64,000 nt of DNA from a virus (lineage: Duplodnaviria; Caudoviricetes): IMG/VR virus record IMGVR_UViG_3300013121_000046; one strand, written 5' to 3'. The notes below the pieces were generated by a model, which was not told the origin of the DNA, made no database searches, and saw nothing but the letters and a program-made list of their open reading frames with translations. The translations under genes were made by a program, and so were the position numbers. This document shows positions 128 through 36,418 of the stretch, piece by piece; position 1 is the stretch's first letter, and the number at the start of each line of letters is the position of its first letter.

Positions 128-358
128 CTATCGGCCTATAGCGTGCTTATCAACTCCACAGCGAGTATACCCACAAGCAGCTAAAGGAATGCCCGATCTA
201 TGGGTAACAGAGGTTTCAGAAATAGCCCTTGAGAAAGGGACAAAACCTCGATAATAGGAAGCCGGAATATCCGACAAAGCCCCCGGTAAAACCTTCTCCA
301 GGATTCTCGCTAAATCTCGCTCTCGTCGAGTCGCCCCTACTCCAGTGAGTGAATTCAT
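128..358 (-). CDS. hypothetical protein (tail module)
   Basis: 76-aa ORF whose start overlaps the upstream stop (TAATG). Confidence 0.55.
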   Translation of the reverse strand: MNSLTGVGATRRERDLARILEKVLPGALSDIPASYYRGFVPFSRAISETSVTHRSGIPLAACGYTRCGVDKHAIGR

Positions 359-8915: not shown

Positions 8916-9358
8916 GGTGAACCCAACGCATCAGATATCAACTGGGCAATAGCTTTCCTAACTAGCGGAGGAAGGCCCTTCCAGTATCCTAAACTTCTAT
9001 CATCCATACTGCCTTGCCTAATAAAAAGCTTATCCACCTGAAGGGCTGGAATTTTCTCGGGTAAGTCCCAGTCAATCAAACAAGCTCGTACCCTGTACTC
9101 AGTTAGTGTGTCAAAATCCAATAAGTGCATCTGATGTTGATCGTCATACCTTAAAGACGACCGTTTGAAGGCCAATTCCTCATCGTAAGATGGGTATCGT
9201 AAAGTTAGCTTAATGTGATAATCTGCCGCACTTTTTTGCTTATTACTTACAGGTATGAGGGTACCACTAGAATCCACCCTTAAGTGGAGCCAAACGGAAA
9301 ATTGATTTCCTTCAACGTTTCGGGAAGTAACTGCTGTTGGACTTACTCTTTTTTGCAT
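8912..9358 (-). CDS. putative tail assembly chaperone
   Basis: LIDWDL and terminal LPPLVRKAIAQLI patterns typical of tail chaperones; follows tube genes. Confidence 0.55.
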   Translation of the reverse strand: MQKRVSPTAVTSRNVEGNQFSVWLHLRVDSSGTLIPVSNKQKSAADYHIKLTLRYPSYDEELAFKRSSLRYDDQHQMHLLDFDTLTEYRVRACLIDWDLPEKIPALQVDKLFIRQGSMDDRSLGYWKGLPPLVRKAIAQLISDALGSP

Positions 9359-9359
9359 T

Positions 9360-10238
9360 TTAAGGTATTACTGGGAGGACAGATATTACATACCAAGTAG
9401 TCTTCCAAAGGACTAATCCATTAGCAGTACCTAAGGACTCCAAATTTCTAGCCTCTCGTACTGTCTCCAAAAAAGTAAAATCCCATAGGGAGTCCCCATT
9501 TTGAGCCGATATCTGAATTTGTGCAGATCCTCTAGAGGCAGGTCTAACCCCAGGACGAGCCAAAGTCATTAACTCAATTGTTGCATCCAAGGGGCCCGGA
9601 GTAATAATTCTAGGGTTAGGTGGACCATAATCCTGGGGTAAAAAACCTCGCCCTTCAGCCAGTCTCTTATACTGCCAATTATTGTTGAGAGACAAGGACC
9701 AGCTTATAGTCTCACCAGAAATTCCACTATGAGTTAGACAAACCTTCCACCCGGGCAGTACTTCATGCTCCCTAGGATTAAAAGCTTGCCCTTCCCGATC
9801 TAACTCTGCTCCATCTCTCTCCTGCCATACCCAAGCTGAAATCTGAAATTGAAGGGAGGCTAAATGCTCTGCTGAAGAAGTTAGAGAAACAGAATCAAGA
9901 TAGGCATAGTCACTTTGGTAGCCCTCTCCACTAGCCACCCGAAGATCTAGGGGGAAAGGGTAGGGGAGAATCTCCTGATTTCGGATTTTCATTGAGTGCA
10001 ATAAAGCCATAGAGAATGACTGCCGAGTCATGGGGCAAGTCAAGTTTATGGCCAATTTTCTACGCTGCTTAACAGTAGGACCCCCGATACCAGATACGTA
10101 TTGTGTGCTGACGGGTCCCCCGCCCTTAAACAGATTTTCTTCATCTATCACAGAGGAAGGCTCTAGCAGTAAGTACTCAGAATCTAACTTAGCATACCCG
10201 CTATATCCTAGGCCCAAAATTTCATTGAAACTGACCAT
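9360..10238 (-). CDS. tail tube-like protein (paralog 2)
   Basis: GYSGYAKLD N-terminus, YLDSVSL, PGW and SWSLSLNNN motifs parallel those of the neighbouring tube protein. Confidence 0.55.
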   Translation of the reverse strand: MVSFNEILGLGYSGYAKLDSEYLLLEPSSVIDEENLFKGGGPVSTQYVSGIGGPTVKQRRKLAINLTCPMTRQSFSMALLHSMKIRNQEILPYPFPLDLRVASGEGYQSDYAYLDSVSLTSSAEHLASLQFQISAWVWQERDGAELDREGQAFNPREHEVLPGWKVCLTHSGISGETISWSLSLNNNWQYKRLAEGRGFLPQDYGPPNPRIITPGPLDATIELMTLARPGVRPASRGSAQIQISAQNGDSLWDFTFLETVREARNLESLGTANGLVLWKTTWYVISVLPVIP

Positions 10239-10313: not shown

Positions 10314-12551
10314 TTACACAGCTAAGTCAAACAGGAGTGGTGGGTTAATCCCATCCCCCATACCCGCAATACCAAAATTTCGAGTTGTGGGAGTGTTGGC
10401 CCCTTGAACATCGTGAGAGTCGGAAGTCAAAAGAATGTTATTCATTCGGAAAGACAACTCACCCACCCCACCACCTAAGGTAAATACCACGCTAGCATTA
10501 CTAGCCGTAAAACCAGAGGGGGTAGAGTTATCTCCGTATGGGTCTTCAATGGGTCCATCCCGCCATACCGTCATATTACCGTCCACAGTAATCGTGCCCT
10601 GTAAAACTGCCACCGGATTTACATCTCCGGTACAGTTATGGTGAACCAGGCCGCCAGCCACATACGAAGAAGTTTCAGAGTTATGGGGGTCATACACTTC
10701 GGCTTCCCCAAACTCATCTACCTTTTCAACCGGATCAAAGTACCACCCCAGTTGGGTGTATAGCTCTAGAAGTTGACAAGTTTTCCCTCGGGTTTTCAGG
10801 ACTTCTTGCACCCGCACGGACATACTCTCAGAGAGAGAATCTATCTTGCCTTTCCATAGGGTTCTCAGAGTCTCTATTGCGCTACGATCTCCGTTATACC
10901 CAAAATTCCAAGTGGGGCATAGGTTCTGAATCAGCCTATCCATGTACGGGATAACCACAAGATGGTCCCCAGATCGCTTAGTCTGTCGGTCTCTCCATGC
11001 CTGAGCCCGTTCGGATTTCACCGAATCGACAAATCCAATCTCCGAGAAGAATATCTCCCGAGACCTTACTCCAGCTAGAACAACTTCGTACTCTCGGAGA
11101 ATACCCCCAAAGGGGTTTCTCCGAGCCCGGTACTGGATACCTGAGAGTATTCCCACCATAGATAACAGAGACTTAACATCCTTCGCGATTTTCCGGTACT
11201 TAGTGGTAAAACTAACCACACCTCGATCCGTAGCCCCATCAGTGGTAAATAGACCACGCAAAAAGGCGCAAATCTGCTGCCTACCGGAAGTCCACAGGGC
11301 CTCTGGGACTCCAGCCATCCGCCATTTCCCCTTACTCTGAGGCTGAGGAATGTCAGAAAAATGGTCTCGACCCTTATACAGGTGTAGCCAGTAGCAGCTT
11401 TTTGTGCGATTTACTCCGCCATGCTGGCTCGGGGAACGAATACTCGTACCATAAGTTAATCCGTTAGTTTCAAAATAACTTTTTAACGGGATCAGGAGTT
11501 CTTCCTGCCCCTCAACCACCAGCCAAGACATTTCCCGCTTCCTCTGACAGCCGTCCCCGTACAAATGTCCAACAGCATACCAGTAGTTGGGGTCTTTCCC
11601 TCGATTCTCAGGGAGCATTCCCTGAGATCCCCGTTGACCGAGCAGGAAATCGCCCTTCCGTAGATCAACCGCCCGTTTCCAACCTAATGTTCCATCAGAA
11701 TTTAGTACCCGGAAACGATGGTCCACTGATACCTTAATATCATTCCCTAATTTGGTACGAACCCGGAGAATCTTTTTCTTCCCCTGAGCTACAATACCGT
11801 CAACCCTCCGAGAACCAAATTCAGTTAGAAGAGCTTGTCGAGTATCTGACAGAGATTTAATCTTCAGATACCCGTTCTCCGTCCAGACTCGGGTATCTCC
11901 GTGGACACAGCCACGAATAATTTGCGTATTATTATTTAGGTTGACTGAAGCATTCATCAACACTAAACCGGTAAGATTACTCTCACTCCAGAAGGGGGCA
12001 GAATTGGGCCAAGTAATTTCAGCCGCTGCAATCCAGCCAGCAATCGGATTGCGATTAAACGGGGCCGGGTTCAGGGGAGCCGTAGGTCTAAATCCTTGGT
12101 CCCGCAAATCCCGATAATTTCCACCTCCTACCACAACTTCCTCACGGCGTAAAGCAACGCCTGTGGCCTGAACCCCAATTAGTTGGTCGTGAGCAATAGT
12201 AAAACTAGCCTGGGATAGCCAAAGGCCATTTCGAGGATCATCTGAAGCCAAATAATCATACCGAACAATACCATTTGGTGAAATTCTAGCGCTCTTAGGA
12301 TAAACTCGCTGCTCCACACACCAATCCCTAAAGACGTTCCAAACCCCAGATTGAGCCTGTAATTCAAAGCTAATGCCACCCTCAAAATGCTGTTGAGAGT
12401 CAGCGTAGTTTGTAGTGGTAGCCGCATTATACCAACCCGCCCCCCAAACACCCGTTGATTGGAGGGGGTTAACTTGGCGATTAAGCCCCGTTGAGTTTGT
12501 GAGGAGATGATAGCCCTCAATCTCCGCATAACCCAGAAAACCAATTGGCAT
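10314..12551 (-). CDS. probable major tail tube protein containing an intein (about 320 aa after splicing)
   Basis: Exteins have tube-like motifs (ASVNLNNN, QGTITVDGNMTV, FRMNNILL); own downstream terminator; located between the neck genes and chaperones. Confidence 0.7.
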   Translation of the reverse strand: MPIGFLGYAEIEGYHLLTNSTGLNRQVNPLQSTGVWGAGWYNAATTTNYADSQQHFEGGISFELQAQSGVWNVFRDWCVEQRVYPKSARISPNGIVRYDYLASDDPRNGLWLSQASFTIAHDQLIGVQATGVALRREEVVVGGGNYRDLRDQGFRPTAPLNPAPFNRNPIAGWIAAAEITWPNSAPFWSESNLTGLVLMNASVNLNNNTQIIRGCVHGDTRVWTENGYLKIKSLSDTRQALLTEFGSRRVDGIVAQGKKKILRVRTKLGNDIKVSVDHRFRVLNSDGTLGWKRAVDLRKGDFLLGQRGSQGMLPENRGKDPNYWYAVGHLYGDGCQRKREMSWLVVEGQEELLIPLKSYFETNGLTYGTSIRSPSQHGGVNRTKSCYWLHLYKGRDHFSDIPQPQSKGKWRMAGVPEALWTSGRQQICAFLRGLFTTDGATDRGVVSFTTKYRKIAKDVKSLLSMVGILSGIQYRARRNPFGGILREYEVVLAGVRSREIFFSEIGFVDSVKSERAQAWRDRQTKRSGDHLVVIPYMDRLIQNLCPTWNFGYNGDRSAIETLRTLWKGKIDSLSESMSVRVQEVLKTRGKTCQLLELYTQLGWYFDPVEKVDEFGEAEVYDPHNSETSSYVAGGLVHHNCTGDVNPVAVLQGTITVDGNMTVWRDGPIEDPYGDNSTPSGFTASNASVVFTLGGGVGELSFRMNNILLTSDSHDVQGANTPTTRNFGIAGMGDGINPPLLFDLAV
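10635..11909 (-). mobile_element. intein with LAGLIDADG homing endonuclease (425 aa)
   Basis: Block A CVHGDTRV, block B SVDHRF, LAGLIDADG motifs VGHLYGDG and FLRGLFTTDG, block F VYD, terminal HHN followed by C+1. Confidence 0.93.
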
Positions 12552-14635: not shown

Positions 14636-17578
14636 TTATGCCGTAATAGTTCTCTCCACTATCTGACTCACAACTAGAGAGTCTCCAGACTCACCTCCGG
14701 AAGTCAGTTCAATATCATTAACTTGGAAATACTCATCCACCTCGTATAGGGTCCACCCAATAAGAGAAGAAGCCCCTGAAGTAGAAGTCAAAGCCACATA
14801 TCTGTAATACCTAAAGGGCAGAGGGTTAGAAACATAAAACTTATTCTCCACCTCCGCCTCTAAAGACCCCCCCATGTTCTCTCGAACATCCAATACTCGC
14901 CAATTTGAACCATCTAAGCTACCTTCCACTCGCCAATCTGCAAAATCATCTGTAGTTGGAGTATCAGATGCTTGAATACCGTATGCCCCTATTTTTACCA
15001 ATACATCTTCACCAAAATCAATCCGTACCCACTGTGAAGTTGTGTTAGTTGGCTGAGGGGAGGGCGTCCATTGGGTGGCCGCGTCCCCATCAAACACCTT
15101 CCACCCTATGTTACTCCCAGAAGCAGGTGTGGACTGAGTAACAGTCATATCCCCGTTTGTAGCTGCGGAAAAAACTGGTACATAATTATCTTCTATGACT
15201 AAGTTTCTAGTCAATTCCAAAGATTCATCTTCAACCGTAAAATTAACCGTCCTAGTCGTAGTATCACTTCTGTATGTGGTTAAAGCGTAAACACTCTCTC
15301 GTTGAGTCTCTGGCCCTGTACCCCCTCTCAAATACAGGGCGGGAGTACCATAAGACACTACAGTATCGGCATCACCTAACGCAGTGGCCACCAACTGCCC
15401 CGCATAGGGACCGGTGCCCAGTAAATCAACTATCTCTTGTACCGTCGTAACTCTAGGATTAGTCGAAGTTCCCTCTAGAGTAATCGTGTAGGTGTAATTA
15501 GGGGAAACCCCAGAACGAGAAAGAGCTAAGGTATCGGTAGAATTGGAATCGTATAACCGCACTTGAATATTATTAGAATCAGTGCCCCCAATCCCAGTAG
15601 CCTCTGTGTCAGCCTCAATCCTAATTCCAGCCCCCGATATTCTGGCTGCAAGATATGTTCTACCCATAACAGATACAGAATCTGCTCCCGTCCCCCCCAC
15701 TACCGGGGTTTGAAGTAAGGGAGGGGTTTCAGCAAGAGATGCCGCATCAATAGCTGCTGCTACTAGGGTAGCTGTATTTGATCCAGAAATAAGACTCGTA
15801 CCATTATGAGCAAGTGTGACAATAATTCTATAAGCCGTAGTTACACTGACCGTAAGAGCAGAAGCTGAACCGGGATTTACATACTCTATAGAAATCTTCT
15901 CCCCAGCACGCCCATCATAGTCCGGAGAATACGCTGTGAAAGTGATTTCACTATTTCCAGAGCCCGTAACTAAAGTAGCCGAAGGAGTAATAGGATAGAT
16001 ATCTAAGCCGGCTCCCCGATTTGAGGGTGTATACTCCACAGACAATCTCTGGGCAGCATAATTAGTATTGCTAGTTGGCCCATCTCCGGCCCCTAGCTGA
16101 GTACCTGGGGTATACGCCACAGTCCTGGCACTAACTAAATTTATAGCGGACCCGGAAGACTGCTCATAAACTATACCAGTCCCCGTTTGACTTCCCCCAA
16201 AAGCCACAGTAGCCCAACTCTTGGCTACCGCATCAGCATCCCAAAGGGTCTTGATGTCGGCTGCTGTGGACACAATATCCCCAGAACCATCTGTTTCTAG
16301 CGAGACTGTAATTTCCGGTAGATAGTCATCTACTGTGATTGTGAGGGGTTCATTCGAGCCTCCCGGATCAACAAAAGCAATTGTTGTATCCGCCCCTTTT
16401 CTTCCGTAGATAGCCGAAGTAAATACCAACCAGTTATCCGCATAGGAGACACTACTACCCAGAGATAGGGTCACTACCTCCCAGGCTGAGAGTACACCGG
16501 TTCCGGATGTAGTGACCTGGATTAGACTACTGGCATCTAAGTCGGCCTCAATAGCAGCCTTCACCGCAGCAGGGGTGGCATTTGGTGAACCTCCCCCATT
16601 TGTACCTAAACTCAGGGTAATGTCACTTCCGGAAACACTTGAGACCTCCGTAGGTTGACTATTACCCACTGCCTGTTCAGCAACTATTGTGATTTGGGTA
16701 CCACCAGAGCCATATTGTTTTGCAATCAAATTGACGATGTTTGTAGTTTGAGCAATACGTGCGGTAGCAAACTTCAAATCTAGAACCGCACGGTCACTCC
16801 CAGATACTGTCACTTCACCCGTAGCCAAGGTGACAGTATCTGGCCTAAAAACTAAAGCAGCATCCAAGTGATTTCCGTATATCTTGTTAAAAACCACATC
16901 AAAATCTCGATGAACTTTCAGACTGTTCTCTAACAGGTAACCAGAAAGTAGACCAGTTTGACCAACAGCAGCAAAATAATTTGTCAATCCCGCTAAGAAA
17001 CCTCCCCAATAAGGGACTAACTCAAAGAACCGATCTGCTGTAATATTAGCATCCAACAGGGAAGCTGCTGTGGTGAGTTGCGCCACCACATCGGCATCCG
17101 CAGTACCCACAACCATCGCTGTGTAATCACCGTTTATGCCACCCGTAAGTAGGGTTGTAGGGGCAGTCACACTGACTACGGAGCTACCATTACTGGTCTC
17201 AGGTAAACTGGCTACCACCACCTGCTGACAAGCACAATCGGCATTGACTAAAGCCAGAATATCGTTAGCTGTGGAAGTAATAACCGCAGAACCATTCGTT
17301 GCCAGAGTCACATAAATAAGTTTCCCCGACCCCTCCAGAGTATTTAACACATCGACAGCTAGTGTGGCACTCGCACCTGGACTATGGAATTGAACCTGAA
17401 TTAGATTTCCAGGGGTTCCTGTGTTAACTGCGGTGAAGGTTATTCCGGCATTACTAGAACCAATCGTGGCCTCAGCCGCTTCGGCTGCCGGAGCCATCTG
17501 AGCCTGAAGTTCAGTAATAATTCCATATTGATAGGCAATGCGATCTAACAGTCTCTGTAGAACTTCTTTTTCAATCAT
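14636..17578 (-). CDS. large virion structural protein with repeated beta-sandwich inserts and a discoidin (F5/8 type C)-like domain
   Basis: About five repeats of I/L-x-F-T-A...G..G..I.V; C-terminal WKVFDG..T.W...WVRIDFG...WRVEGSLDGSNW..LD...FRYYR discoidin signature. Confidence 0.7.
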   Translation of the reverse strand: MIEKEVLQRLLDRIAYQYGIITELQAQMAPAAEAAEATIGSSNAGITFTAVNTGTPGNLIQVQFHSPGASATLAVDVLNTLEGSGKLIYVTLATNGSAVITSTANDILALVNADCACQQVVVASLPETSNGSSVVSVTAPTTLLTGGINGDYTAMVVGTADADVVAQLTTAASLLDANITADRFFELVPYWGGFLAGLTNYFAAVGQTGLLSGYLLENSLKVHRDFDVVFNKIYGNHLDAALVFRPDTVTLATGEVTVSGSDRAVLDLKFATARIAQTTNIVNLIAKQYGSGGTQITIVAEQAVGNSQPTEVSSVSGSDITLSLGTNGGGSPNATPAAVKAAIEADLDASSLIQVTTSGTGVLSAWEVVTLSLGSSVSYADNWLVFTSAIYGRKGADTTIAFVDPGGSNEPLTITVDDYLPEITVSLETDGSGDIVSTAADIKTLWDADAVAKSWATVAFGGSQTGTGIVYEQSSGSAINLVSARTVAYTPGTQLGAGDGPTSNTNYAAQRLSVEYTPSNRGAGLDIYPITPSATLVTGSGNSEITFTAYSPDYDGRAGEKISIEYVNPGSASALTVSVTTAYRIIVTLAHNGTSLISGSNTATLVAAAIDAASLAETPPLLQTPVVGGTGADSVSVMGRTYLAARISGAGIRIEADTEATGIGGTDSNNIQVRLYDSNSTDTLALSRSGVSPNYTYTITLEGTSTNPRVTTVQEIVDLLGTGPYAGQLVATALGDADTVVSYGTPALYLRGGTGPETQRESVYALTTYRSDTTTRTVNFTVEDESLELTRNLVIEDNYVPVFSAATNGDMTVTQSTPASGSNIGWKVFDGDAATQWTPSPQPTNTTSQWVRIDFGEDVLVKIGAYGIQASDTPTTDDFADWRVEGSLDGSNWRVLDVRENMGGSLEAEVENKFYVSNPLPFRYYRYVALTSTSGASSLIGWTLYEVDEYFQVNDIELTSGGESGDSLVVSQIVERTITA

Positions 17579-24482: not shown

Positions 24483-25268
24483 TTATACCTCAGAATTTTG
24501 CATTGTAATTGCCGTCTTCTTAGGCCTACCTCCGGATTTTCGGAACTTCACTTGTCGCTTCAAAAAAGCTAAGTAGAGAGTGTGGTCAGGTACCTTAACC
24601 TGCTTCGATATTTTTCGCAGACTAAGCCCTTGTTTGTACAGTACCTCAGCCTCATCTATGGCTGCTTCTCTTCTCTCCGCCTGCATAACAGAGATGGAAG
24701 TACCCTGTTCACGAAGACTTCGAGACAAGACCCCACGCGAAACTTTAAGGTTTTCGCGAATCTCACTCCCAGAGAGGCCCGCATTAATGGCTCTCCGTAC
24801 ATCTTCCTGGGGGATAACCCTCCCCTGAACACACTTACTGTTGCATCTTCGAGGTACTGAATTCCGTCGGAGAGCCCTAGAAACAATATCTGGGGTTATC
24901 CCTAACTCAAACTGGATTTCCTTCCAGGAAGCACCACGCTGGTACAGAGCGATGATCTTAACTTCCTGTTCTGAGGGTGGCTTTCTCTGTCTCTTCGGAG
25001 TAAAATCATTTCTCTGCTGAACCAGAGCTACCAAATATTCGGACACGCCCAGTTTGGCAGAAATTTTCTCCCTAGAGAGTCCCTCTCGACTCAACCTCAG
25101 TATTTCTGCATCCTTATCCTGGCTTTTTCCAGATCTTTCCCTCAGTGGCACCTTAAGATCCAGAAGGTATTTCCTGACCGTACTGGGATGAATCCCTAGA
25201 ATCTTAGCCACGTTGCTCTGGGTATAGCCACTCAAGTAAAGTTGTACAAGCCGACTCAAATCTTTCAT
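24483..25268 (-). CDS. multi-HTH repeat DNA-binding protein
   Basis: About five tandem HTH units (LYLSGYTQSNVAKILG, LSREGLSREKISAKLG, LYQRGASWKEIQFELG, INAGLSGSEIRENLK, LYKQGLSLRKISKQVK). Confidence 0.8.
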   Translation of the reverse strand: MKDLSRLVQLYLSGYTQSNVAKILGIHPSTVRKYLLDLKVPLRERSGKSQDKDAEILRLSREGLSREKISAKLGVSEYLVALVQQRNDFTPKRQRKPPSEQEVKIIALYQRGASWKEIQFELGITPDIVSRALRRNSVPRRCNSKCVQGRVIPQEDVRRAINAGLSGSEIRENLKVSRGVLSRSLREQGTSISVMQAERREAAIDEAEVLYKQGLSLRKISKQVKVPDHTLYLAFLKRQVKFRKSGGRPKKTAITMQNSEV

Positions 25269-26035: not shown

Positions 26036-26074
26036 GAAACCTAACTCCGACAAAAATACTTGTCCTTTGACAAA

Positions 26075-26114
26075 AAAATCTCTTACCCCCCTGAATAGGG
26101 GGGTAAGAGATTTT
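26075..26114 (-). terminator. strong intrinsic terminator closing the cytochrome/protease operon
   Basis: Perfect 18-bp stem AAAATCTCTTACCCCCCT/AGGGGGGTAAGAGATTTT with U-tail. Confidence 0.85.
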
Positions 26115-26142
26115 CAAAGTAACGTACTGTCGGAAAAGAAGC

Positions 26143-26496
26143 CTAGAAACCAAAGTTTCTCTGCACATTAACCTGTCGAGAGAAACTCCGCACTGGCCGA
26201 TTGAACACTCTTTGTCGAATTATCTGCTGCTGCACAATCTGCGGTTGTGCAACTAAAAGCTGCTGCTGGTATACCGGTTGACCCACAGCAAAAGGTAAAA
26301 ACTGCTGTTGAATCACCGGTGGTTGGTAGGTAACCACCGGAGCAGCCTGGGGCAGAAAGAAAGTCGTAGCAACCGGGCTCGGAACAAAAGTCCCAAAAGA
26401 CCGAACTTGGAGACTTGAGGCACAATTCCCAGCCTCTGCCACCGTAGGCAGCAACAAGACAACCCCAACCACAAAAGGAGCAACTACGTTCTTCAT
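26143..26496 (-). CDS. small secreted Gln/Val-rich low-complexity protein
   Basis: Signal peptide ending AEA; QQQ-rich body. Confidence 0.65.
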   Translation of the reverse strand: MKNVVAPFVVGVVLLLPTVAEAGNCASSLQVRSFGTFVPSPVATTFFLPQAAPVVTYQPPVIQQQFLPFAVGQPVYQQQLLVAQPQIVQQQIIRQRVFNRPVRSFSRQVNVQRNFGF

Positions 26497-26505
26497 GGTA
26501 CACCT

Positions 26506-27666
26506 CTATTGGAAAAAGGTAAGGATGGATAACAATTCCGCTGGGGGTAAGGCTTGCCCGGGGGTTTTATCTGGACCTAAAGGCATTCTTTTGGCTACAT
26601 CTGGATTAGTTACAGCCAAAACTATTTTCTTTCCCCACTCATTCCGTTGCTCCACTCCCCAGGAAGCCACCTCAGATAAATCTAAAGCCCCCGAAGCATT
26701 TTCTTTCGAGTGGCAAACCACACACCTATTTATAATTACCTGGGGTGCCACAGCCACTAACTGTGAACCCATAGCTGCTAACTGAGGGTCACCGATAGTT
26801 GTAGAACTATAGCTAGAGGATGAAGTTATTCCATAGGGTTGGACTGTAACCTCTCCCTGAGGTGAGACAGTACCTGAAAGAACAAAAGTTCTAGGTTGAG
26901 CCGACGGTGTAAGGTCTCCCTTTGCTGCAATCAGAACTTTCGCCGCCGCGTCTGCCTGAGCTAATATCTTGGCAATCTCCGCCTGATGGGTACCGTGATC
27001 GGTAATTAGTGCTGAAAAATCTACCGCAGCTTGACCAGCTAAAGTCTGAGCTTGTGTCGCTAATCGGGAGGCCTGGTTATACAAAGAGGCCAAATCAACA
27101 TTCCCATAATTCGAGGAAAATTGATTAAAACCATACACAGTATTTCCCTGAGCAGCAAAAGGCTGATAGCCAGTCATCCCAGGAATACCCAACTGATTTA
27201 AGAGAGGGGCCCCCAAATTTGGATTCGTGGCACCATACTCCCCAGCACCAGAAGCATAGGTAGGAGTTGATCCGTATCCGGACCAAGAGAAATTCCCCTC
27301 CAACCCTAAAGCTCGAATACTTTCGATAAACTCGTTCTGCTCATTAGCACTTTCCCGAAGTCTTGCTTCAGCCCTATCCCTAGCCGCCACTAAATTAAGT
27401 AGTGTTGTTCGCCACCCCTCAGTACCCGGCGTATAGGAATCTACTCTGGCAAATTGGCGATAAGTGTAGGGATGATTACAAGTCCCCCGACAGCCACAGG
27501 TTCGATACCGCTTATAGTACCAACCATCATTTGTGGTGTAATCTGTTTTTTGGAACAGACCATTCCCCATTGGAACGTAGTACCAGCCCTCTGCTTTAAC
27601 CGGACTAAAACTCAGGGACAAAAACAGGACAAAAAATAGAATCTTGTGCAACATGATTGCTCTCAT
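26506..27666 (-). CDS. exported protein with C-terminal Planctomycete-type cytochrome c domain
   Basis: Signal peptide ending VKA; CVVCH heme motif followed by GALDLS and RMP (candidate axial Met). Confidence 0.75.
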   Translation of the reverse strand: MRAIMLHKILFFVLFLSLSFSPVKAEGWYYVPMGNGLFQKTDYTTNDGWYYKRYRTCGCRGTCNHPYTYRQFARVDSYTPGTEGWRTTLLNLVAARDRAEARLRESANEQNEFIESIRALGLEGNFSWSGYGSTPTYASGAGEYGATNPNLGAPLLNQLGIPGMTGYQPFAAQGNTVYGFNQFSSNYGNVDLASLYNQASRLATQAQTLAGQAAVDFSALITDHGTHQAEIAKILAQADAAAKVLIAAKGDLTPSAQPRTFVLSGTVSPQGEVTVQPYGITSSSSYSSTTIGDPQLAAMGSQLVAVAPQVIINRCVVCHSKENASGALDLSEVASWGVEQRNEWGKKIVLAVTNPDVAKRMPLGPDKTPGQALPPAELLSILTFFQ

Positions 27667-27673
27667 TTTCAGC

Positions 27674-29314
27674 TTACTGGGTTGGAGATGGAACGGATCC
27701 TGGAGAAACCTGTTGCGGAATTTCTGTATCCCCTTGCTCAGGGGTATTTCTTTGCGGTATTATCACACGATTCAACAAATCACCGTAGATTTGTTCAAAC
27801 TGCTGACGATGAATCGGAAGAGCACTCAGTAGAGCAGCTATATCTGGATCTTCTGGTGAAATTCCGTCTGCACCCAAAGGTATAGGCGGCACAGCCTGAC
27901 GCAGGGCTTCAACACTAAAAGCCAAAGTCTCTGCGTCTGTTCCGCCAACCTGAAAAGGAATACCCAATTCCCTACAAGCTGTATCTGCTGCGACTAGACT
28001 ATACCAATACCCAGCATAAACGGATGACACATCTTCAGAGATATCTGGCACAGTCTTCTGTACCAGTCTAAATATAAAGTTAGAGTAACTATCTCGACCT
28101 TTACGAAGAGAAATCCCTAAATCTCCAGTAAACATCTCTGCCAAAATTTGTAGCGTCTTGGGTACAGAATCTTTAGACGATAAGTCATCATAGACTTCAA
28201 AAGCCCCCTTCTTACCTCTCATTCCTTCCCATAATTTCTTGACTTGATTATCGAAGGGGATTAGCCCTTCGTGAGGACCATGACACCGAATACAACTTAA
28301 CGGAGGAAATAATCTCTTGGTATGAGGGGCTGGAACAAGATGGTCCGCAACTACATTATCGGGTGCCCAGTCTAACAAATCCCCCGCTGAATTCCAAATC
28401 GTCCACTCTTGTCCTCCGTTTGACCAGTCCACAATAACTTCATTCCCCCGAGCCCCACTCTTAGGAAAATCCAGTAAATTTCTAATGGGGCTCCTGGTAG
28501 GATCATCATCCTCATCAAATACATCATCGGTAATCCAAATCAAACTACTACCAACGCTACTCCTCACTCCAGCCCCGGGAAAGACCCGAATCATCCTCTC
28601 TTTGCCTGTCACGCCTGAATAAAAAAGAGCCGCCCTTTCCTCGCTGCGTAATTTTTCCACCTGTTCCTGTGAAGCACCCCGGGACAAGAGATAATCCTTA
28701 AATTTCATCCCCTTTATACCACGCCAGTCGTAATATAACTGCTTACCTATAGTCCCATTGGAGATATAAGTAAGCCAGTCCCCTCGAACTATTGGACAAA
28801 CACTTTTTACATTATCACTCAACGCCAATAGGGAAACACCAAATCTTGGGTGCGGAGTAGGTGTTTGTACTGCCTCAAACTTAAAATCATAAGTCTTTCC
28901 ATCTTTGGCCTTAAAGGGTTCCACCTTAACTTTAGTTTGAATAGTTTGAAAAACATGGAAGTATGGCTCAATTGACGCTAGGTCTTCCCAGATAGTAAAT
29001 ATCTGAACATAGTCTTTCTCATCCGGAGCAATCGCTCGGAGATCCACCCGAAGTAGGTGACCCCCAACTAGAACTTCCGGAATAATAGGTAATCCGGTAC
29101 GAGTCAAAGACAGATTTAGGGTAAAGACTACCGCATCTCGGATAGTCGCATCTGCTCTAGGGACCCAAATATATCGCTGATAGGGACGATGCTGCTCAGG
29201 AATACTAGCTGAATCCCTCAACGCTGCTTCAACCACAGCGGAGGGAGGCGTCTGAGCAAAAAGAGCGATTGGGTACAGCAGAAAAAAAGAGAAAAGATAA
29301 GCTACTTTTCTCAT
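27674..29314 (-). CDS. exported c-type cytochrome domain protein
   Basis: Signal peptide ending ALFA; LSCIRCHG heme motif; SGVT..ER, GNEVI...SNG and APDNVVAD motifs. Confidence 0.7.
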   Translation of the reverse strand: MRKVAYLFSFFLLYPIALFAQTPPSAVVEAALRDSASIPEQHRPYQRYIWVPRADATIRDAVVFTLNLSLTRTGLPIIPEVLVGGHLLRVDLRAIAPDEKDYVQIFTIWEDLASIEPYFHVFQTIQTKVKVEPFKAKDGKTYDFKFEAVQTPTPHPRFGVSLLALSDNVKSVCPIVRGDWLTYISNGTIGKQLYYDWRGIKGMKFKDYLLSRGASQEQVEKLRSEERAALFYSGVTGKERMIRVFPGAGVRSSVGSSLIWITDDVFDEDDDPTRSPIRNLLDFPKSGARGNEVIVDWSNGGQEWTIWNSAGDLLDWAPDNVVADHLVPAPHTKRLFPPLSCIRCHGPHEGLIPFDNQVKKLWEGMRGKKGAFEVYDDLSSKDSVPKTLQILAEMFTGDLGISLRKGRDSYSNFIFRLVQKTVPDISEDVSSVYAGYWYSLVAADTACRELGIPFQVGGTDAETLAFSVEALRQAVPPIPLGADGISPEDPDIAALLSALPIHRQQFEQIYGDLLNRVIIPQRNTPEQGDTEIPQQVSPGSVPSPTQ

Positions 29315-29374
29315 AGTAACTCCTGAGGCAGATTTTTATGCGTCCAGCCGAAATGTCTCCCCTACTTATACGAG

Positions 29375-30406
29375 CTACTTGCCATCCGGCCGAAAAACCC
29401 AACGGCCCGTAACTCCATTCAGAACAATGGGTCCCCAAGATATCTCTCCCGGAGCCTTTACCGGAGGAGCCGGAGCCTTCACCGCAGAACTCAGAACTGT
29501 TCCAGGGTCAATTAAACCATAGCCATAATCCGGGTCTTCACCAGCAGCACCAGCATCAATAGCGGTACTCTGAAGAAGTTTCTTCAATTCTGAGTTATTC
29601 TTAAACGTTGGATTCTCTGATTTCTTATTCAGAGAAACTGCTAAGGCAACTACCCCACTAACAAAAGGGGTGGCCATGCTGGTTCCAGATAATTTTGCAT
29701 AGGTACCATTTTTATAGGTAGACAAAATATCCTGACCAGGGGCACAAATATCCACCTCGGGCCCACGAGAAGAGAAGGGAGCAACGGTCCCATCCGACAT
29801 TACGGCCCCTACAGAAACTGTAAAAGCCCACTTTGCCGGATAGTTAACAGAATCGACTCTAGGTCCATCATTTCCAGCGGCACAAACCACGTACAGCCCA
29901 GCAGAAACAGCCTGCTGTAAAGCCTGCATGATAGGCCCCGCTGGGACCGGGCTCCCCAGAGACATAGATATAATATCAGCCTTTTTCTCTATGGCCCAAA
30001 GAATGCCTTGCACCACACTCTGAGTACTTCCTGAACCGTCATCACCCAGGACTTTTCCCACCAGAATCTTACACTCCGGAGCAACACCAATGACTCCTAC
30101 ATCATTTTGACGAGCCCCAATAGTCCCAGACACATGGGAACCGTGTCCCTGCATATCCTCAGGGCCAAATCTAGAGAATGTAAAATCCTGGGCATCCAAA
30201 ATGGCTGCCTGAAGATCCTTATGACTCAAGTTGCAACCAGTATCCAAAACGGCAACTGTTACTCCCTCACCCTTGGTCTTCGTCCATTGATCCGGTATTT
30301 TTCCAAAACGTAATCCCCAATCCATTGTTTCAGACAAAGATGTAACTGAAATCTCCTGAATTCCAAACAGAGGGGGATTACGCCAAATAGTAGATTCATC
30401 GGACAT
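29375..30406 (-). CDS. subtilisin-family (S8) serine protease, intracellular-subtilisin-like
   Basis: Catalytic triad LDTG, HGSH, GTSMATP; oxyanion AAGN; no signal peptide or long prodomain. Confidence 0.95.
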   Translation of the reverse strand: MSDESTIWRNPPLFGIQEISVTSLSETMDWGLRFGKIPDQWTKTKGEGVTVAVLDTGCNLSHKDLQAAILDAQDFTFSRFGPEDMQGHGSHVSGTIGARQNDVGVIGVAPECKILVGKVLGDDGSGSTQSVVQGILWAIEKKADIISMSLGSPVPAGPIMQALQQAVSAGLYVVCAAGNDGPRVDSVNYPAKWAFTVSVGAVMSDGTVAPFSSRGPEVDICAPGQDILSTYKNGTYAKLSGTSMATPFVSGVVALAVSLNKKSENPTFKNNSELKKLLQSTAIDAGAAGEDPDYGYGLIDPGTVLSSAVKAPAPPVKAPGEISWGPIVLNGVTGRWVFRPDGK

Positions 30407-30426
30407 TTGAGAACCCTTAAGGGGGA

Positions 30427-30894
30427 TTAACCCAAAAGCTGAATTAACTGAAGGATCAGAGGGATAACTCTACCCACTAATAAAGCCCACCCTACGGCCG
30501 ACTGAGCTTGCCACTTCTCCGCAAGAACCGCCTCAGTTTCTAAGGCAGAGAAAGAGGGCATGAGATTCTTAAGGAGCAGATTCTTAAGAATCGCTAAAAC
30601 TACCGGGTTATCCAAGGCCGAGGAAATAACTGATACGAGAGAATCGTCTACCTGTGTATCAGTGAGCTTAGCCAGTAATTCGGCAGCTTTTTTGATAATT
30701 TCCAACCGCTGCTTCAAGGCAACTTCATCGTCCCAAGGGGCGGAAATCGCCAACCACTCTTTAAGCAGGGGCAGAAAAGCATCCAGAAGACCTGAAGCAG
30801 CAAATTTCTTATACAGGCTTATTAACTCTTTGAAATCCTTCAATTTGCTAAAAGCCTGAGCATCGAAAGAAGCGGGTTGAATTCTGCGAGCCAT
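30427..30894 (-). CDS. helical protein with C-terminal hydrophobic segment
   Basis: Start at MARRIQP with AAGGA RBS; ends WALLVGRVIPLILQLIQLLG. Confidence 0.6.
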   Translation of the reverse strand: MARRIQPASFDAQAFSKLKDFKELISLYKKFAASGLLDAFLPLLKEWLAISAPWDDEVALKQRLEIIKKAAELLAKLTDTQVDDSLVSVISSALDNPVVLAILKNLLLKNLMPSFSALETEAVLAEKWQAQSAVGWALLVGRVIPLILQLIQLLG

Positions 30895-30904
30895 AGGAAC
30901 ATCC

Positions 30905-31939
30905 TTAGGATAGAGATAGAGTGCGGTCGCCTTGGAAAGTAAACTCAATCTGATCGGTGTTTGTATAGGTCGAAACTGAGAGTTCTTTTACCCCACTGTA
31001 AAGGGGATACAATTTAGGGGTATTGGCTAAGTAGTACTCATACTTCAAGCCAGGGGAAGCCACATTTACTGTCCCACTTACCGTCGAAATAGTAATAACC
31101 TCAGAAGAGCCGGTAATTGGGTCAACCAAAAGAGCTTTCTCCCCAGCAATAAAGGGAGCCGTGCTGGAAACATTTATTGCCGTTGCTCCAACAGCCAAAT
31201 CCCCGGTTGTAACGCTGACTCTTCCCACAGGAAATGCCGTTCCTACCACAGATCCATTTGTGACCGTAACCGTCACATCATGGGTAGTTTCACCGTCCGC
31301 CAAGTAAACGGTCAGTGTAAATGCCAAATTAGAGCCACCAATAGTGTTTTCCACCACAACGGTAGAAATGACTCCGGGCCCAGTCCGAGAGGTGTCACAA
31401 ATGGCCCCACCCTCTGGACCATCCTCATAGCCGGTTGCTCCAGTGATTACGTGATCGGTTAGAGCCGAGGTCACATTTACATGACCTAATAGAGAGTCTC
31501 CGTTGGGCCAAAGGTAAGCCGCCCCTAATCTCTGAGAAAAATTCTCGTAGTAGAGATCACCGAAGTATTCATGGACACGCCAACCCACATCAGACAGAAA
31601 AGAAGTCCACCCCGAGGCTAAGCCCAAGTCTGTAGCAAAATAATCTCTGTGAAGAGAGAACCACTCACTGAGGCGACTACCGATACTCACATCCTGAAGT
31701 CGAGTATCCACAATAGTCATCTGAGAACCCTTAACCCGGTTCTCATAGGTCATATTGGCCGCTACCTGAGCCGGAGGAGACACCGGAAGATCCACAGTAG
31801 ACCAAATATAATCCGAATCTCGCCCAGAAATTGCTAAAAGCAGGGCCTGCTTATAAGCGGCTAAATGATCGGCCTGGAGTTGGATCTTAAGGCCAACCTC
31901 TTCCGGGGTCGTGGGGGAAGACATATATTCTGACTCCAA
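30905..31939 (-). CDS. virion structural protein, paralog of 14636..17578
   Basis: Shares YFA...[K/R]VH..F...L.AA block and C-terminal [E/D]RT[I/L]; Thr/Val/Ser-rich beta insert. Confidence 0.6.
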   Translation of the reverse strand: MESEYMSSPTTPEEVGLKIQLQADHLAAYKQALLLAISGRDSDYIWSTVDLPVSPPAQVAANMTYENRVKGSQMTIVDTRLQDVSIGSRLSEWFSLHRDYFATDLGLASGWTSFLSDVGWRVHEYFGDLYYENFSQRLGAAYLWPNGDSLLGHVNVTSALTDHVITGATGYEDGPEGGAICDTSRTGPGVISTVVVENTIGGSNLAFTLTVYLADGETTHDVTVTVTNGSVVGTAFPVGRVSVTTGDLAVGATAINVSSTAPFIAGEKALLVDPITGSSEVITISTVSGTVNVASPGLKYEYYLANTPKLYPLYSGVKELSVSTYTNTDQIEFTFQGDRTLSLS

Positions 31940-32010
31940 TTAGGAAGCAACCTAGAACAAGACACTTCATGTATCAATTCCCCGTATGAACGAATCACAA
32001 AATGTAAAAT

Positions 32011-32051
32011 AAAAAACCTCGCAGGCCCCAAAGGAACCTGCGAGGTTTTTT
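32011..32051. terminator. intrinsic terminator (bidirectional-type) downstream of the VWA gene
   Basis: AAAAAACCTCGCAGG/CCTGCGAGGTTTTTT inverted repeat. Confidence 0.85.
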
Positions 32052-32084
32052 AGTCACTACTCTACTTTTGTTTTCAGGTACACA

Positions 32085-33845
32085 TCAAGCGATATCCTGC
32101 AAGGAGATCGTATCCCCGAATTTCGGGAGATAGCTCTGATAATTGGACTTAACCATAGCCAAGTCCCAAACAGCCCACAAAACCGGGTACTCAGGAGCCT
32201 TGTCCGGGTACACACCAAATAAATCAGTGAAATAGATAAGGAAATCCGGGTTCCGGGTCTTGGCGAAATGGTCAAAAACCGGACGGAAGTCCGTACCACC
32301 ACCCCCCTTAGGAGACCAGTCAATCGTTCCCCCTTCCCAGACTTCCTGACAACTCTGAATCGCTGCATCGCAGCAAAGCAAAACCAAGTCATGCGCGGGA
32401 ATTTGACCTCGAATCGACTCAACTTCAGCCGCAAACCGGTTCAACAATTCTTGAGAAATACTCCCAGAAGTATCAATCGCAATGGCCCCGCACAACTTCC
32501 CAATTTGCAAACCCGGAATAATCGTCCCGGTACGAGCCAAATATCCCCGATTCGGCCTCTGGTAAGAGTAGTCCGAACGGGCCACTTGAATGACAAACCG
32601 AGACAATTCCGCTCGCCAGTCCCGAGTTTTACGTTGAACAATCTCAACATTGAGGCACGCATTACCAGCACCTTTCCCGTGCTGACGAAGGGCCGCTCGT
32701 TCTGCTTCCTGCATCTCCTCCTCTGATGCCCTCTCCGTGGTCCCTTCCACATCGGCATCCTGAGAAATGTCGATCACATCTCCATTCTCATCAATCACTT
32801 GAGCATACTGACCGTTCCCCAGATCCTTAGCCCCTTCGGGAACTTGATCCTCAATATCGCCAATAAAAATATGCCGCTTTTGGGGAGGAGTCAGGTCAGA
32901 ACTAGAATCTGTAGGAGAACCCCCCTGCCCGGAAGAATTATCTTCCCCAGGATTACCTTTCCCAGAATTACCCCAATCCGGAATGGGAAACCCACCAGAA
33001 CCTGAGCATTGACCACAATCCCCATTTTCACCAGATTGACCTTCCTGCCCATTCATCCCGGCAGCATTGCTCTCCATCTCCTCTACTTCATCAAGCATGG
33101 CCGAGAAAATAGCTTCAGTCGATCTACCAGCCCATTCCGGATAATACACCGAAGTATCAAGCATCGGCATCCCGGCATCTTCCAAATCATCTTTAATCGT
33201 ACCGTGAATCGCGGCATCCGCCGCCAAATTCCAGATTTTGGCATTCCGCTGTCGCAAAATGCTCTTAGCAAATCGCCGAAAAGTATCCTTGGTCGGATCC
33301 GGACACTTCGTACGGGCCAAATACCCATCAATCTCAGCATCGTCCGGAATCACATACCCCTGCGAACGCCAAATGTGCCGCCAAACCACATGGGCCATCT
33401 CATGGACAACCACAAAAGCCCGCTCTTCAAGAGTGAGCGAAGCAATGAAAACCGGGTTGAAAAATAGGTTTTTGCCGTCCGTAGCTGCGGTAGGCAGCCA
33501 ATCGGTCTTGGGGATTTTGGGCATTCGCCTTGCGCGATATGCCCACAGAATGTCATAGTTATCCTCAACCAAATCAATGGCTTCGGTCAGATTGTCCAAC
33601 TGAGCCTCAATATACTGAGTCCGCCCCGAGGGATCCAATTCCTCAAACTTCTTAGTCTCTTCGCGACAGCGAAGAACCAATCGCAACCCATTCCGGGACA
33701 TTCCCGTACCAGTCAACAGCGTATCCTGATCCTCCTGCGGAAGAGCTTGGAAGCCAGCCCAAGTCAAGCCTTTCAGACTTTCTTTCTGAGCCTCCGTCAA
33801 TTCTGGCAGTTTGGTTGTGTTATCCGGGGGGGCAAAAAAAGACAT
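32085..33845 (-). CDS. DUF2201-type metallopeptidase plus VWA domain protein
   Basis: TAATDG, HEMAH (HExxH), WNLAADAAI, MIDAS DTSGS, GGGTDF and FTD motifs. Confidence 0.9.
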   Translation of the reverse strand: MSFFAPPDNTTKLPELTEAQKESLKGLTWAGFQALPQEDQDTLLTGTGMSRNGLRLVLRCREETKKFEELDPSGRTQYIEAQLDNLTEAIDLVEDNYDILWAYRARRMPKIPKTDWLPTAATDGKNLFFNPVFIASLTLEERAFVVVHEMAHVVWRHIWRSQGYVIPDDAEIDGYLARTKCPDPTKDTFRRFAKSILRQRNAKIWNLAADAAIHGTIKDDLEDAGMPMLDTSVYYPEWAGRSTEAIFSAMLDEVEEMESNAAGMNGQEGQSGENGDCGQCSGSGGFPIPDWGNSGKGNPGEDNSSGQGGSPTDSSSDLTPPQKRHIFIGDIEDQVPEGAKDLGNGQYAQVIDENGDVIDISQDADVEGTTERASEEEMQEAERAALRQHGKGAGNACLNVEIVQRKTRDWRAELSRFVIQVARSDYSYQRPNRGYLARTGTIIPGLQIGKLCGAIAIDTSGSISQELLNRFAAEVESIRGQIPAHDLVLLCCDAAIQSCQEVWEGGTIDWSPKGGGGTDFRPVFDHFAKTRNPDFLIYFTDLFGVYPDKAPEYPVLWAVWDLAMVKSNYQSYLPKFGDTISLQDIA

Positions 33846-35308: not shown

Positions 35309-36418
35309 CTATCGACCCTTATTGTCTTGCTCCGACAAGTAGTGAGAGTACCCGGCAATCGACTGGACGTAACCCAAGCCGAACCGCTCCTCCAGGGCGC
35401 GAATTGCCACATACGCCATTTCTTCCGGCAACTGCGTGCAGAACCGACAAACGCGATCCACAGCCTTCTCTTCCTGAGGACACATCGACCCCAAGAGGAC
35501 TGCCAAACTGGACGCCTCCTGCGAACTTAGGGGCCGTCCCTGCTTATAGTCATCCTGCGACCAAATCAAATTGGCCGGAGGAATCTGGTTCTCCTCATTC
35601 ACCAAAAACTTCAAATAGGCCAAAGCCGGAGCCATCCCAACTGCCGCAGAAACAGCCAACCGAGTCAACTCCAGGGACTTCTTCTTGTCCGGATCATTCC
35701 CCATAATCTCCGCCACAAATGCCCAAGACCGGGGGGAAGGCCAAGCGCTACCCGAATTGTCTGCACTCATATCGTGCAGAAGGGTCGGGTTTATCAACAG
35801 GAATGCAATCAGATTGGGATTGACGTTGTTACGGAAGGCCCAATCCATCCAATCATAGATATCCGGCTTCACTTCAGCATGGATAAACCGATTCGCCAAA
35901 GGCGAAGGCATACGGAAAGTCACGCCACGGTCACTCTCTCGATTACCGGCGGCAATAATTCGACAGTCTTTGGGAAGACACGTCTCTCCAACCCGTCGAT
36001 CCAGGATCAACTGGTATCCTGCCGCCTGCACCGAAGGCGGAGCGGAATTGATCTCATCCAAGAAAAGAACCGTGTTCTTTTCGTTCGGCTGAGGGAGAAA
36101 CTTCGGAGGAAACCAAACGCATTGCTTGGTTGCCATATCGGGGACACCGATGCCCCGCAAGTCGATGGGGTCCAACTGACTCAATCGCACATCGTACAGC
36201 TTGAGTCCATGATCCGCACAGTACTGTCGAACGCCATCCGACTTCCCCACTCCTGGGGGGCCCCAAATCATCAGAGCACGGTGCGAAGGAATCACCCCCA
36301 AAAGGCGCTTCAGATCACTGACCCGAACAATTGGGGCACCCCCCTCTTCCTTCCGCTTGCCCTGCATATTCTTAGGGGCTCGGACTCGTCCCAAGGGCTT
36401 CTTAGCTACCGGAGCCAT
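35309..36418 (-). CDS. MoxR-like AAA+ ATPase
   Basis: Walker A GPPGVGKS, Walker B LFLDE, AAGN, PLANRF and PSPRSW motifs; GGAGGA RBS. Confidence 0.93.
   Translation of the reverse strand: MAPVAKKPLGRVRAPKNMQGKRKEEGGAPIVRVSDLKRLLGVIPSHRALMIWGPPGVGKSDGVRQYCADHGLKLYDVRLSQLDPIDLRGIGVPDMATKQCVWFPPKFLPQPNEKNTVLFLDEINSAPPSVQAAGYQLILDRRVGETCLPKDCRIIAAGNRESDRGVTFRMPSPLANRFIHAEVKPDIYDWMDWAFRNNVNPNLIAFLLINPTLLHDMSADNSGSAWPSPRSWAFVAEIMGNDPDKKKSLELTRLAVSAAVGMAPALAYLKFLVNEENQIPPANLIWSQDDYKQGRPLSSQEASSLAVLLGSMCPQEEKAVDRVCRFCTQLPEEMAYVAIRALEERFGLGYVQSIAGYSHYLSEQDNKGR

Follow-up and report, generated by a model that had tools for sequence, protein, structure and literature searches.

An undescribed, recurrent phage cassette encoding two exported putative c-type haem proteins together with a protease and a small exported protein

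The stretch analysed here, called the window below, comprises 64,000 nucleotides of the IMG/VR virus record IMGVR_UViG_3300013121_000046 (Caudoviricetes). It carries a cassette of four genes, which encode in order a protease, an exported protein of an undescribed family (X), an exported partner protein with a C-terminal cytochrome c domain of the PSCyt1 type, and a small exported low-complexity protein. This cassette was found to be conserved and recurrent in dozens of unrelated phages. It is undescribed and widespread; the kinds of components, c-type haem proteins and proteases, are known, but the family at its centre is uncharacterised. Sequence comparison showed that X and the partner match the two halves of one bacterial two-haem protein. 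We favour the reading that this is a mobile accessory cassette, in which an exported ligand-binding haem and an electron relay would be coupled to proteolysis. As a whole, we give this reading a probability of about one half.

The cassette is the last part of a unit of six co-oriented genes bounded by two strong hairpin terminators. All real-looking open reading frames (ORFs) of at least 110 residues in the window lie on the minus strand, as do all window features given below. The 5' boundary of the unit is an intrinsic terminator at 32010–32052 (20-bp stem, 3-nt loop, T-run), which closes the upstream DUF2201/VWA gene. The terminator at the 3' end (approximately 26073–26112; 13-bp GC-rich stem, 6-nt loop, T7) was missed by the terminator scan and was identified from the sequence by eye. 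The six-gene arrangement had been proposed in a sequence-only reading of this DNA, and both the ORFs and the two hairpins bore it out. The intergenic gaps from gene 3 to gene 6 are 60, 7, and 9 nt.

X (gene 4, 27674–29314) has 546 residues. Its N-terminus resembles a signal peptide, with MRK followed by a hydrophobic stretch and an LFA/Q end. For all three window proteins regarded as exported, the assignment was made from a Lys/Arg start, a hydrophobic stretch, and an A-x-A type of end, and it was complemented by a hydropathy test on homologues. The haem-attachment motif CIRCH is found at residues 341–345 (SCIRCH, 340–345). A word-indexed search yielded 89 homologues with 25–41% identity, and 70 of these displayed a signal-like N-terminal hydrophobic stretch in the hydropathy test. 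C-x-R-C-H was invariant throughout, and C341, R343, C344, and H345 belong to only 12 invariant columns in the alignment. There was no second invariant His or Met among the 89 homologues, which fits an open axial position at the haem. The exhaustive HMMER search extended the family to 3,857 clusters (50% identity) at E ≤ 1e-3, 1,332 of which were retained at E ≤ 1e-30. None of 34 family members matched a Pfam cytochrome family at E ≤ 1, and X obtained no Pfam, NCBIfam, PHROG, or PADLOC assignment. Its profile had 0 matches at E ≤ 10 against all PDB sequences, and tblastn against 50,697 GenBank phage records gave none. In the literature, we found no paper on the X family or on the function of PSCyt1. 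One homologue, located on a metagenome-assembled genome (MAG) contig labelled Burkholderiaceae (L036; G003:C5:6847-8445), has a single in-frame TGA, which could reflect a pseudogene, a sequencing error, or an alternative code.

The AlphaFold2 (AF2) model of X was obtained with a mean predicted local distance difference test score (pLDDT) of 90.9 and a predicted template modelling score (pTM) of 0.88. It consists of an N-terminal α/β domain, a central domain, and a C-terminal helical domain. The predicted central domain has five strands (226–230, 240–246, 258–264, 290–296, and 302–307), followed by the helix 339–348 that carries CIRCH. In Foldseek searches with the model, neither PDB nor BFVD yielded a match at E ≤ 0.001, and the rows for portal and DnaK were dismissed as noise (TM ~0.1).

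The partner (gene 5, 26506–27666) has 386 residues, a signal end of VKA/E, and the motif CVVCH at residues 315–319, followed by ALDLS and KRMP (Met361–Pro362). This corresponds to the PSCyt1 motif pattern of CxxCH, LDL, and a distal Met-Pro. Indexed homologues were few, and 20 more were taken from the loci next to X, resulting in an alignment of 23 sequences. C315, C318, H319, and P362 were invariant in this set, M361 was nearly invariant, and all 23 proteins had a signal-like N-terminal hydrophobic stretch by the hydropathy test. Most homologues matched the PSCyt1, Cytochrome_CBB3, and Cytochrom_C models; the counts were 19 of 23 for PSCyt1 (PF07635, best 1.4e-6) and 16 of 23 for Cytochrome_CBB3. 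The partner is PSCyt1-like by the matches of its homologues, the motif pattern, and the Met-Pro conservation, but the window copy itself gave no PF07635 match at E ≤ 1. No PADLOC or NCBIfam match was found for the partner. The AF2 model predicts a signal helix, helices at 85–119 and 192–248, a hairpin, and a C-terminal domain with pLDDT values of 86–95. Structure searches with this model were uninformative: VIA-align gave coiled-coil matches to the long helix only, and the SorU cytochrome row of Foldseek was insignificant (E 2.2).

Proteins named after the "Planctomycete cytochrome C" domain have the architecture PSCyt1–PSCyt2/DUF1549–PSD1/DUF1553, and their pattern of CxxCH, G-L-D-L, and R-M-P is common to the C-terminal domain of the partner. 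In contrast to them, the partner has no DUF1549, DUF1553, or PSD region, its PSCyt1 domain is placed C-terminally on a predicted helical stalk, and the window copy falls below the Pfam threshold.

Both CxxCH motifs were invariant in their families (89 of 89 and 23 of 23) and are therefore not due to chance. Combined with the signal-like N-termini, this conservation supports the earlier proposal that X and the partner are exported c-type haem proteins. Alternatively, the CxxCH motifs may serve without haem, in metal binding or a disulfide, and the proteins may be structural, for example in the virion or in envelope binding. That X and the partner of the window both fail to reach a Pfam cytochrome model on their own and that Foldseek gives X no known cytochrome fold is in line with such a role. 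We consider it extremely improbable, as the signal peptides, the invariant CxxCH with its His, and the partner's near-invariant distal Met and invariant Pro fit covalent haem c. The cytochrome model matches of most partner homologues and the fusion of X relatives to bona fide PSCyt1 domains (see below) also speak against it.

Evidence that X and the partner belong together also came from bacteria. X homologues were detected in 7 of 300 further Planctomycetota genomes sampled, where they are distant, occur 1–4 per genome, and lie within proteins of 600–1,800 residues. These cellular relatives combine a signal peptide, an N-terminal PSCyt1 domain, and an X region, with lengths of 600–810 residues for this architecture, and the 810-residue forms add a C-terminal DUF4384. 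The hmmsearch E values for the X region of seven cellular proteins were 1e-22 to 4e-28. In hhalign, residues 44–468 of X aligned with residues 136–543 of a 596-residue cellular protein (probability 99.3%, E 6.8e-21, 358 columns), with SCMACH placed on SCIRCH. The partner family hidden Markov model matched the PSCyt1 region of this fusion (2.3e-7, 28.6 bits; cut-off 22 bits). The two phage families thus match different parts of the same cellular polypeptide, a Rosetta-stone fusion. At the level of sequence, this shows the phage pair to be two halves of one bacterial two-haem protein. The ESM Atlas provided independent agreement. Standalone X clusters were 65–87% viral there. The structural neighbours of X (TM 0.63–0.69) were PSCyt1-X proteins of Planctomycetota and Myxococcota, WD40-PSCyt1-X proteins, and X-DUF4384 proteins of Pseudomonadota.

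The bacterial PSCyt1-X(-DUF4384/WD40) family is itself uncharacterised. It has in common with the phage pair a homologous X region with the haem motif aligned, a PSCyt1 domain matching the C-terminal domain of the partner, export, and genes encoded next to proteases. The phage version differs in being split into two genes with reversed order: X comes first, and PSCyt1 lies at the end of the second protein. PSCyt1 and X were not joined in one polypeptide in the window or in any phage locus. The phage partner also adds a helical region of approximately 250 residues, and a small exported protein follows it. The proteases differ as well, since S8, M10, and C14 enzymes without export signals accompany the phage genes, while WD40-caspases stand beside the bacterial fusions. 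These WD40-caspase proteins (~1,000 residues) were seen next to three cellular loci, while the neighbour at another one is an M48-TPR peptidase. Exported proteins of 410–470 residues without a Pfam match were observed downstream of 600-residue PSCyt1-X fusions (L043 6501-7787, L044 6718-9295, and L048 7792-9213). On visual inspection, the C-terminal parts of these proteins look like the DUF4384 module of the 810-residue forms.

The WD40-caspase neighbours raise the possibility of counter-defence by mimicry. The host PSCyt1-X(-DUF4384) proteins and WD40-caspases would then form an envelope death or defence switch, and the phage copies would be decoys or dominant-negative subunits by which it is blocked or hijacked. 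WD40-caspase architectures are typical of conflict systems, and homologues of host defence components are frequent in phages; furthermore, some phage loci encode a caspase of their own (L036). However, the phage-type family is very large and retains every presumed functional residue, and the cellular fusions were found only in the 7 of 300 genomes mentioned above. Neither X nor the partner had a PADLOC match. We therefore hold this explanation to be distinctly improbable.

The gene before X encodes the protease. In the window, this is gene 3 (29375–30406), a subtilisin-family S8 serine protease of 343 residues. It matched Peptidase_S8 (PF00082) with E 1.4e-60 over the full profile (positions 1–288 of 288) and phrog_3677 at 9e-83. 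The Asp, His, and Ser triad motifs DTG, HGSHV, and GTSMATP are present, and the protease is intact. The QhpE and mycosin matches in NCBIfam/PADLOC were generic and below the cut-off. While the S8 identity put forward earlier was confirmed, its description as a periplasmic protease found no support, as gene 3 has no signal peptide.

To place the cassette in a wider context, related loci were collected by alignment-based scans, yielding 30 IMG/VR contigs (8–408 kb) and 6 MAG contigs, 36 loci in total. The slot upstream of X is often occupied by a protease in these loci, but the family varies. S8 enzymes lie directly upstream of X in the window, L008/9, L017/33, L018, and L031; the S8 of L030 is divergent, and that of L019 is nearby. 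A matrixin (M10) takes the position in L003, L004, L007, L010, L011/12, L029, and L034, often with PG_binding_1 and a Cys-switch-like CG-x-D motif. In L036, a caspase (C14) is encoded two genes upstream of X. None of 14 cassette proteases (S8 or M10) had a signal-like N-terminus in the hydropathy test. Four related huge-phage contigs (L001, L002, L005, and L006; ~9250–9820) have a conserved protein of 160–173 residues in the slot, with no family match and no recognisable protease. A Tail_P2_I protein of 1,200 residues is divergently encoded next to it.

X was followed by the partner in approximately 30 of the 36 loci. The two genes were usually directly adjacent, and sometimes a small ORF or an HNH nuclease gene lay between them. 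Genes for HNH/homing-type endonucleases were seen between X and the partner or beside the cassette in several phages (L013–L015 11392-11970; L030 11529-12215).

The small exported protein is the fourth recurrent member. In the window, it is encoded by gene 6 (26143–26496) and has 117 residues with a signal end of AEA/G. Its mature part of 95 residues is rich in Gln, Val, Phe, Pro, and Arg (18 Gln, 14 Val, 10 Phe, and 10 Pro) and contains no Asp or Glu, which agrees with the small secreted Gln-rich protein described from the sequence alone. It had no PADLOC or NCBIfam match. Of 30 loci, 24 encode a protein of the same kind, 60–160 residues long, immediately after the partner. The criteria were a signal peptide and a mature part with at least 70% V/Q/N/R/F/G/P/A/S and at most 5% D+E. 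These proteins often carry VVV-N-R type repeats and a hydrophobic-Pro-Gln motif, and they end in F, Y, or R. A lipoprotein or o-spanin reading was ruled out for them, as their signals end in A-x-A with no [AGS]-C lipobox.

The conserved unit consists therefore of the protease, X, the partner, and the small exported protein. The joint occurrence of an S8 gene, two CxxCH genes, and a gene for a small exported protein, anticipated from the window, was recovered in the IMG/VR neighbourhoods of many phage contigs. Of the six-gene module initially proposed, only these last four genes are conserved together; for gene 1 and gene 2, none of the 36 loci contains a relative, and both are specific to this phage. 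The other neighbours vary and include HNH nucleases, a helicase, a polymerase, an integrase, and structural proteins. A PHROG census of 86 neighbouring proteins from 25 loci revealed no recurring function except HNH nucleases, and neither holins nor endolysins appeared among the PHROGs. A lysis or tail module as the setting of the cassette was dropped after this census. The four-gene unit, conserved amid heterogeneous neighbours, behaves as a self-contained, mobile accessory cassette. The environmental phages that carry it probably infect Planctomycetota and similar bacteria.

The sequence-only reading had mentioned lysis among the possible roles, and a specific version can be formulated for a host with a protein-rich wall. 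The 155-residue product of gene 2 would be a tail-anchored holin, and the signal-less protease would be released through it as the wall-degrading enzyme. The coiled-coil partner and the small exported protein would act as a spanin- or disruptin-like pair on the outer layers. Canonical endolysins also lack signal peptides, and PG_binding_1, present in several M10 versions, is common in endolysins. The predicted N-terminal hydrophobic helix and long helices of the partner are like those of an i-spanin, the small protein is basic and hydrophobic, and no muralytic enzyme was seen among the ORFs scanned, which covered part of the window only. We nevertheless find this version rather improbable. The 155-residue protein is not conserved with the cassette, the small proteins have A-x-A ends of the signal-peptidase-I type without a lipobox, and holins and endolysins are not enriched among the neighbours in 25 other phages, which are not, as a set, lysis or structural genes. 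Moreover, membrane fusion does not explain two invariant haem sites and a conserved X of 500 residues, and the cellular fused homologues do not lie in prophage lysis modules.

A lead on the chemistry of X was provided by structure comparison. Residues 195–402 of the model were compared with 48,161 chains, and five known P460/c'-β proteins were all found in the top 7, with 107–114 residues aligned. These structures (PDB 2je3, 6hiu, 6amg, 7s5o, and 8brk; PF16694) are the same five that are named in the description of the fold (PMC11928373). There, the P460/c'-β fold is described as an antiparallel sheet of five strands that occurs in no other families. Its members are periplasmic mono-haem c proteins in which CxxCH follows the sheet near the end of the domain, and the AF2 model of X predicts the same arrangement. 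Further marks of the superfamily are a five-coordinate haem, a Lys cross-link (P460) or hydrophobic cap (c'-β), and a homodimer; of these, the lack of a second invariant His or Met in X bears indirectly on the coordination. No sequence relation was detected. PF16694 matched none of 34 X family members at E ≤ 1, and hhalign of the X alignment against a Planctomycetota P460 alignment gave a probability of 2.9%, with the CxxCH aligned only. As the relation is not visible in sequence, we treat it as a lead; judging from the model, the haem domain of X rather probably has a P460/c'-β-type fold. If the assignment holds, it would extend a fold that has been regarded as restricted to two small protein families, and the hint of such a pocket suggests candidate ligands for X. 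As a separate observation, single open frames with two or three tandem Cytochrome_P460 domains occur in Planctomycetota genomes (G155:C15, G066:C5, G136:C1, and G173:C3).

The same lead could point to an auxiliary metabolic module. X would then be a periplasmic redox enzyme, as P460/c'-β proteins are, for example in the oxidation or detoxification of hydroxylamine, NO, or peroxide. The PSCyt1 partner would link it to the host respiratory chain and so sustain or protect energy metabolism during infection; the adjacent protease and small protein would have no part in it. A cytochrome c dedicated to one enzyme is the classical arrangement, the predicted haem domain of X resembles P460/c'-β, and the P460 family is common in Planctomycetota (23 of 201 genomes). 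The variable positions of the cassette are also like those of morons and auxiliary genes. Furthermore, cytochrome-containing auxiliary genes have been described in phages, for example soxD in those of sulfur oxidisers (PMC8190135); phage cytochrome c genes are thus not without precedent. Both the soxD phages and the present ones encode c-type haem proteins that would rely on host maturation. However, soxD is part of a known pathway and accompanies soxC, whereas no known pathway includes X and the partner, whose companions are a protease and a small exported protein. A metabolic role leaves the constant position of four unrelated protease families and the acid-free small exported protein unexplained. 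In addition, the cellular relatives carry fused WD40 or DUF4384 regions and have caspases as neighbours, not nitrogen or respiratory genes, and X has no sequence relation to P460. We regard a metabolic module as unlikely.

The favoured reading, a mobile accessory cassette coupling exported haem proteins to proteolysis, can be detailed as follows. The Sec and cytochrome c maturation systems of the host would deliver X and the partner to the periplasm, with one haem attached to each. The haem of X would be held in a β-sheet pocket of the P460/c'-β kind. With His as its only conserved axial ligand, it would have an open site and so could bind a ligand or substrate. The haem of the partner would be a His/Met electron relay on a coiled-coil stalk, passing electrons to or from X. 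The recurrent protease and small exported protein would share a function with the haem proteins. Four unrelated protease families take the neighbouring position (S8, M10, and C14 in phages, with WD40-C14 and M48 in cells), which argues for a functional tie between the haem pair and proteolysis. In the most likely scenario, the pair would sense or modify the envelope's redox or ligand state, with a coupling to proteolytic cleavage by which the host envelope is changed in the course of infection. The target of that cleavage, or else a structural partner, would probably be the small exported protein, and candidate outputs are envelope remodelling, exclusion, death, or the timing of lysis. The main unexplained feature of this scheme is a compartment mismatch: the protease lacks an export signal while the haem proteins carry one.

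A bolder form of the scheme can be conceived, which we consider speculative and unlikely to be right in full. X would represent a third, much enlarged branch of the P460/c'-β group and act as a periplasmic gas or redox sensor. Bacteria would wire the form fused to PSCyt1, WD40, or DUF4384 to caspase-type proteases as a switch from envelope to proteolysis. Thousands of phages would have captured a split version, which they would export into the host and use, with a protease of their own and an aggregation-prone small protein, to determine or bring about breakdown of the envelope, exclusion, or death of the cell. If true, this would be a phage-borne haem-sensor/protease system without a described counterpart.

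Exported haem proteins are outside the standard picture of phage action on hosts. The two-haem module is nevertheless present in dozens of sampled viral contigs, and the X family amounts to several thousand sequence clusters. The bacterial fusion is Rosetta-stone evidence for the joint working of the two phage proteins, and the recurrence of four unrelated protease families beside the pair suggests that the redox or ligand chemistry of the envelope is linked to proteolysis. Phages of Planctomycetota-like hosts have hardly been studied, and the cassette may also offer a first functional entry to them.

The remaining genes of the unit lie outside the conserved cassette. The ORF of gene 1 spans 30905–31939; its probable start is the ATG at 31924 behind GGAG, giving a protein of 339 residues (30905–31924). 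It had been called virion-type, which could not be confirmed: there was no Pfam, PHROG, PADLOC, or NCBIfam match, and BLAST gave only a weak match (E 0.004) to the 980-residue tail protein of the window. For gene 2 (ORF 30427–30948), the probable ATG at 30894 gives 155 residues (30427–30894). Its extreme C-terminus is hydrophobic, as stated earlier. It likewise received no family assignment in these four databases, with weak matches only to phrog_402 (7e-4) and the TIGR02242 tail domain (8e-4, under the cut-off).

The source contig of the window has 236,349 bp according to the protein database record, and the phage is therefore large and known from metagenomes only. The DNA of the region had no match among the 50,697 GenBank phage records, and no tRNAs were found in the 64-kb window. 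PHROG matches identified a large terminase (57344–59218), a portal-like protein of 1,145 residues (53341–56778), the 980-residue tail protein (14636–17578), and a further tail protein (358–3333). Just upstream of the cassette unit lie the genes for a DUF2201 protein (32085–33845; putative metallopeptidase N-domain and VWA-like C-domain, E ~1e-25 each) and a MoxR-type AAA+ ATPase (35309–36418; phrog_1297, 5e-83). Homologues of both were seen near the X gene of locus L018. Directly downstream of the cassette terminator, 24483–25268 encodes a 261-residue protein with multiple helix-turn-helix repeats (HTH_23, 3 stretches, E 2e-21). The portal-like protein and a 745-residue protein (10314–12551) both matched weakly the same phrog_26446, which is annotated as anaerobic ribonucleotide reductase. 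This common match may reflect a shared inserted element, e.g., an intein.

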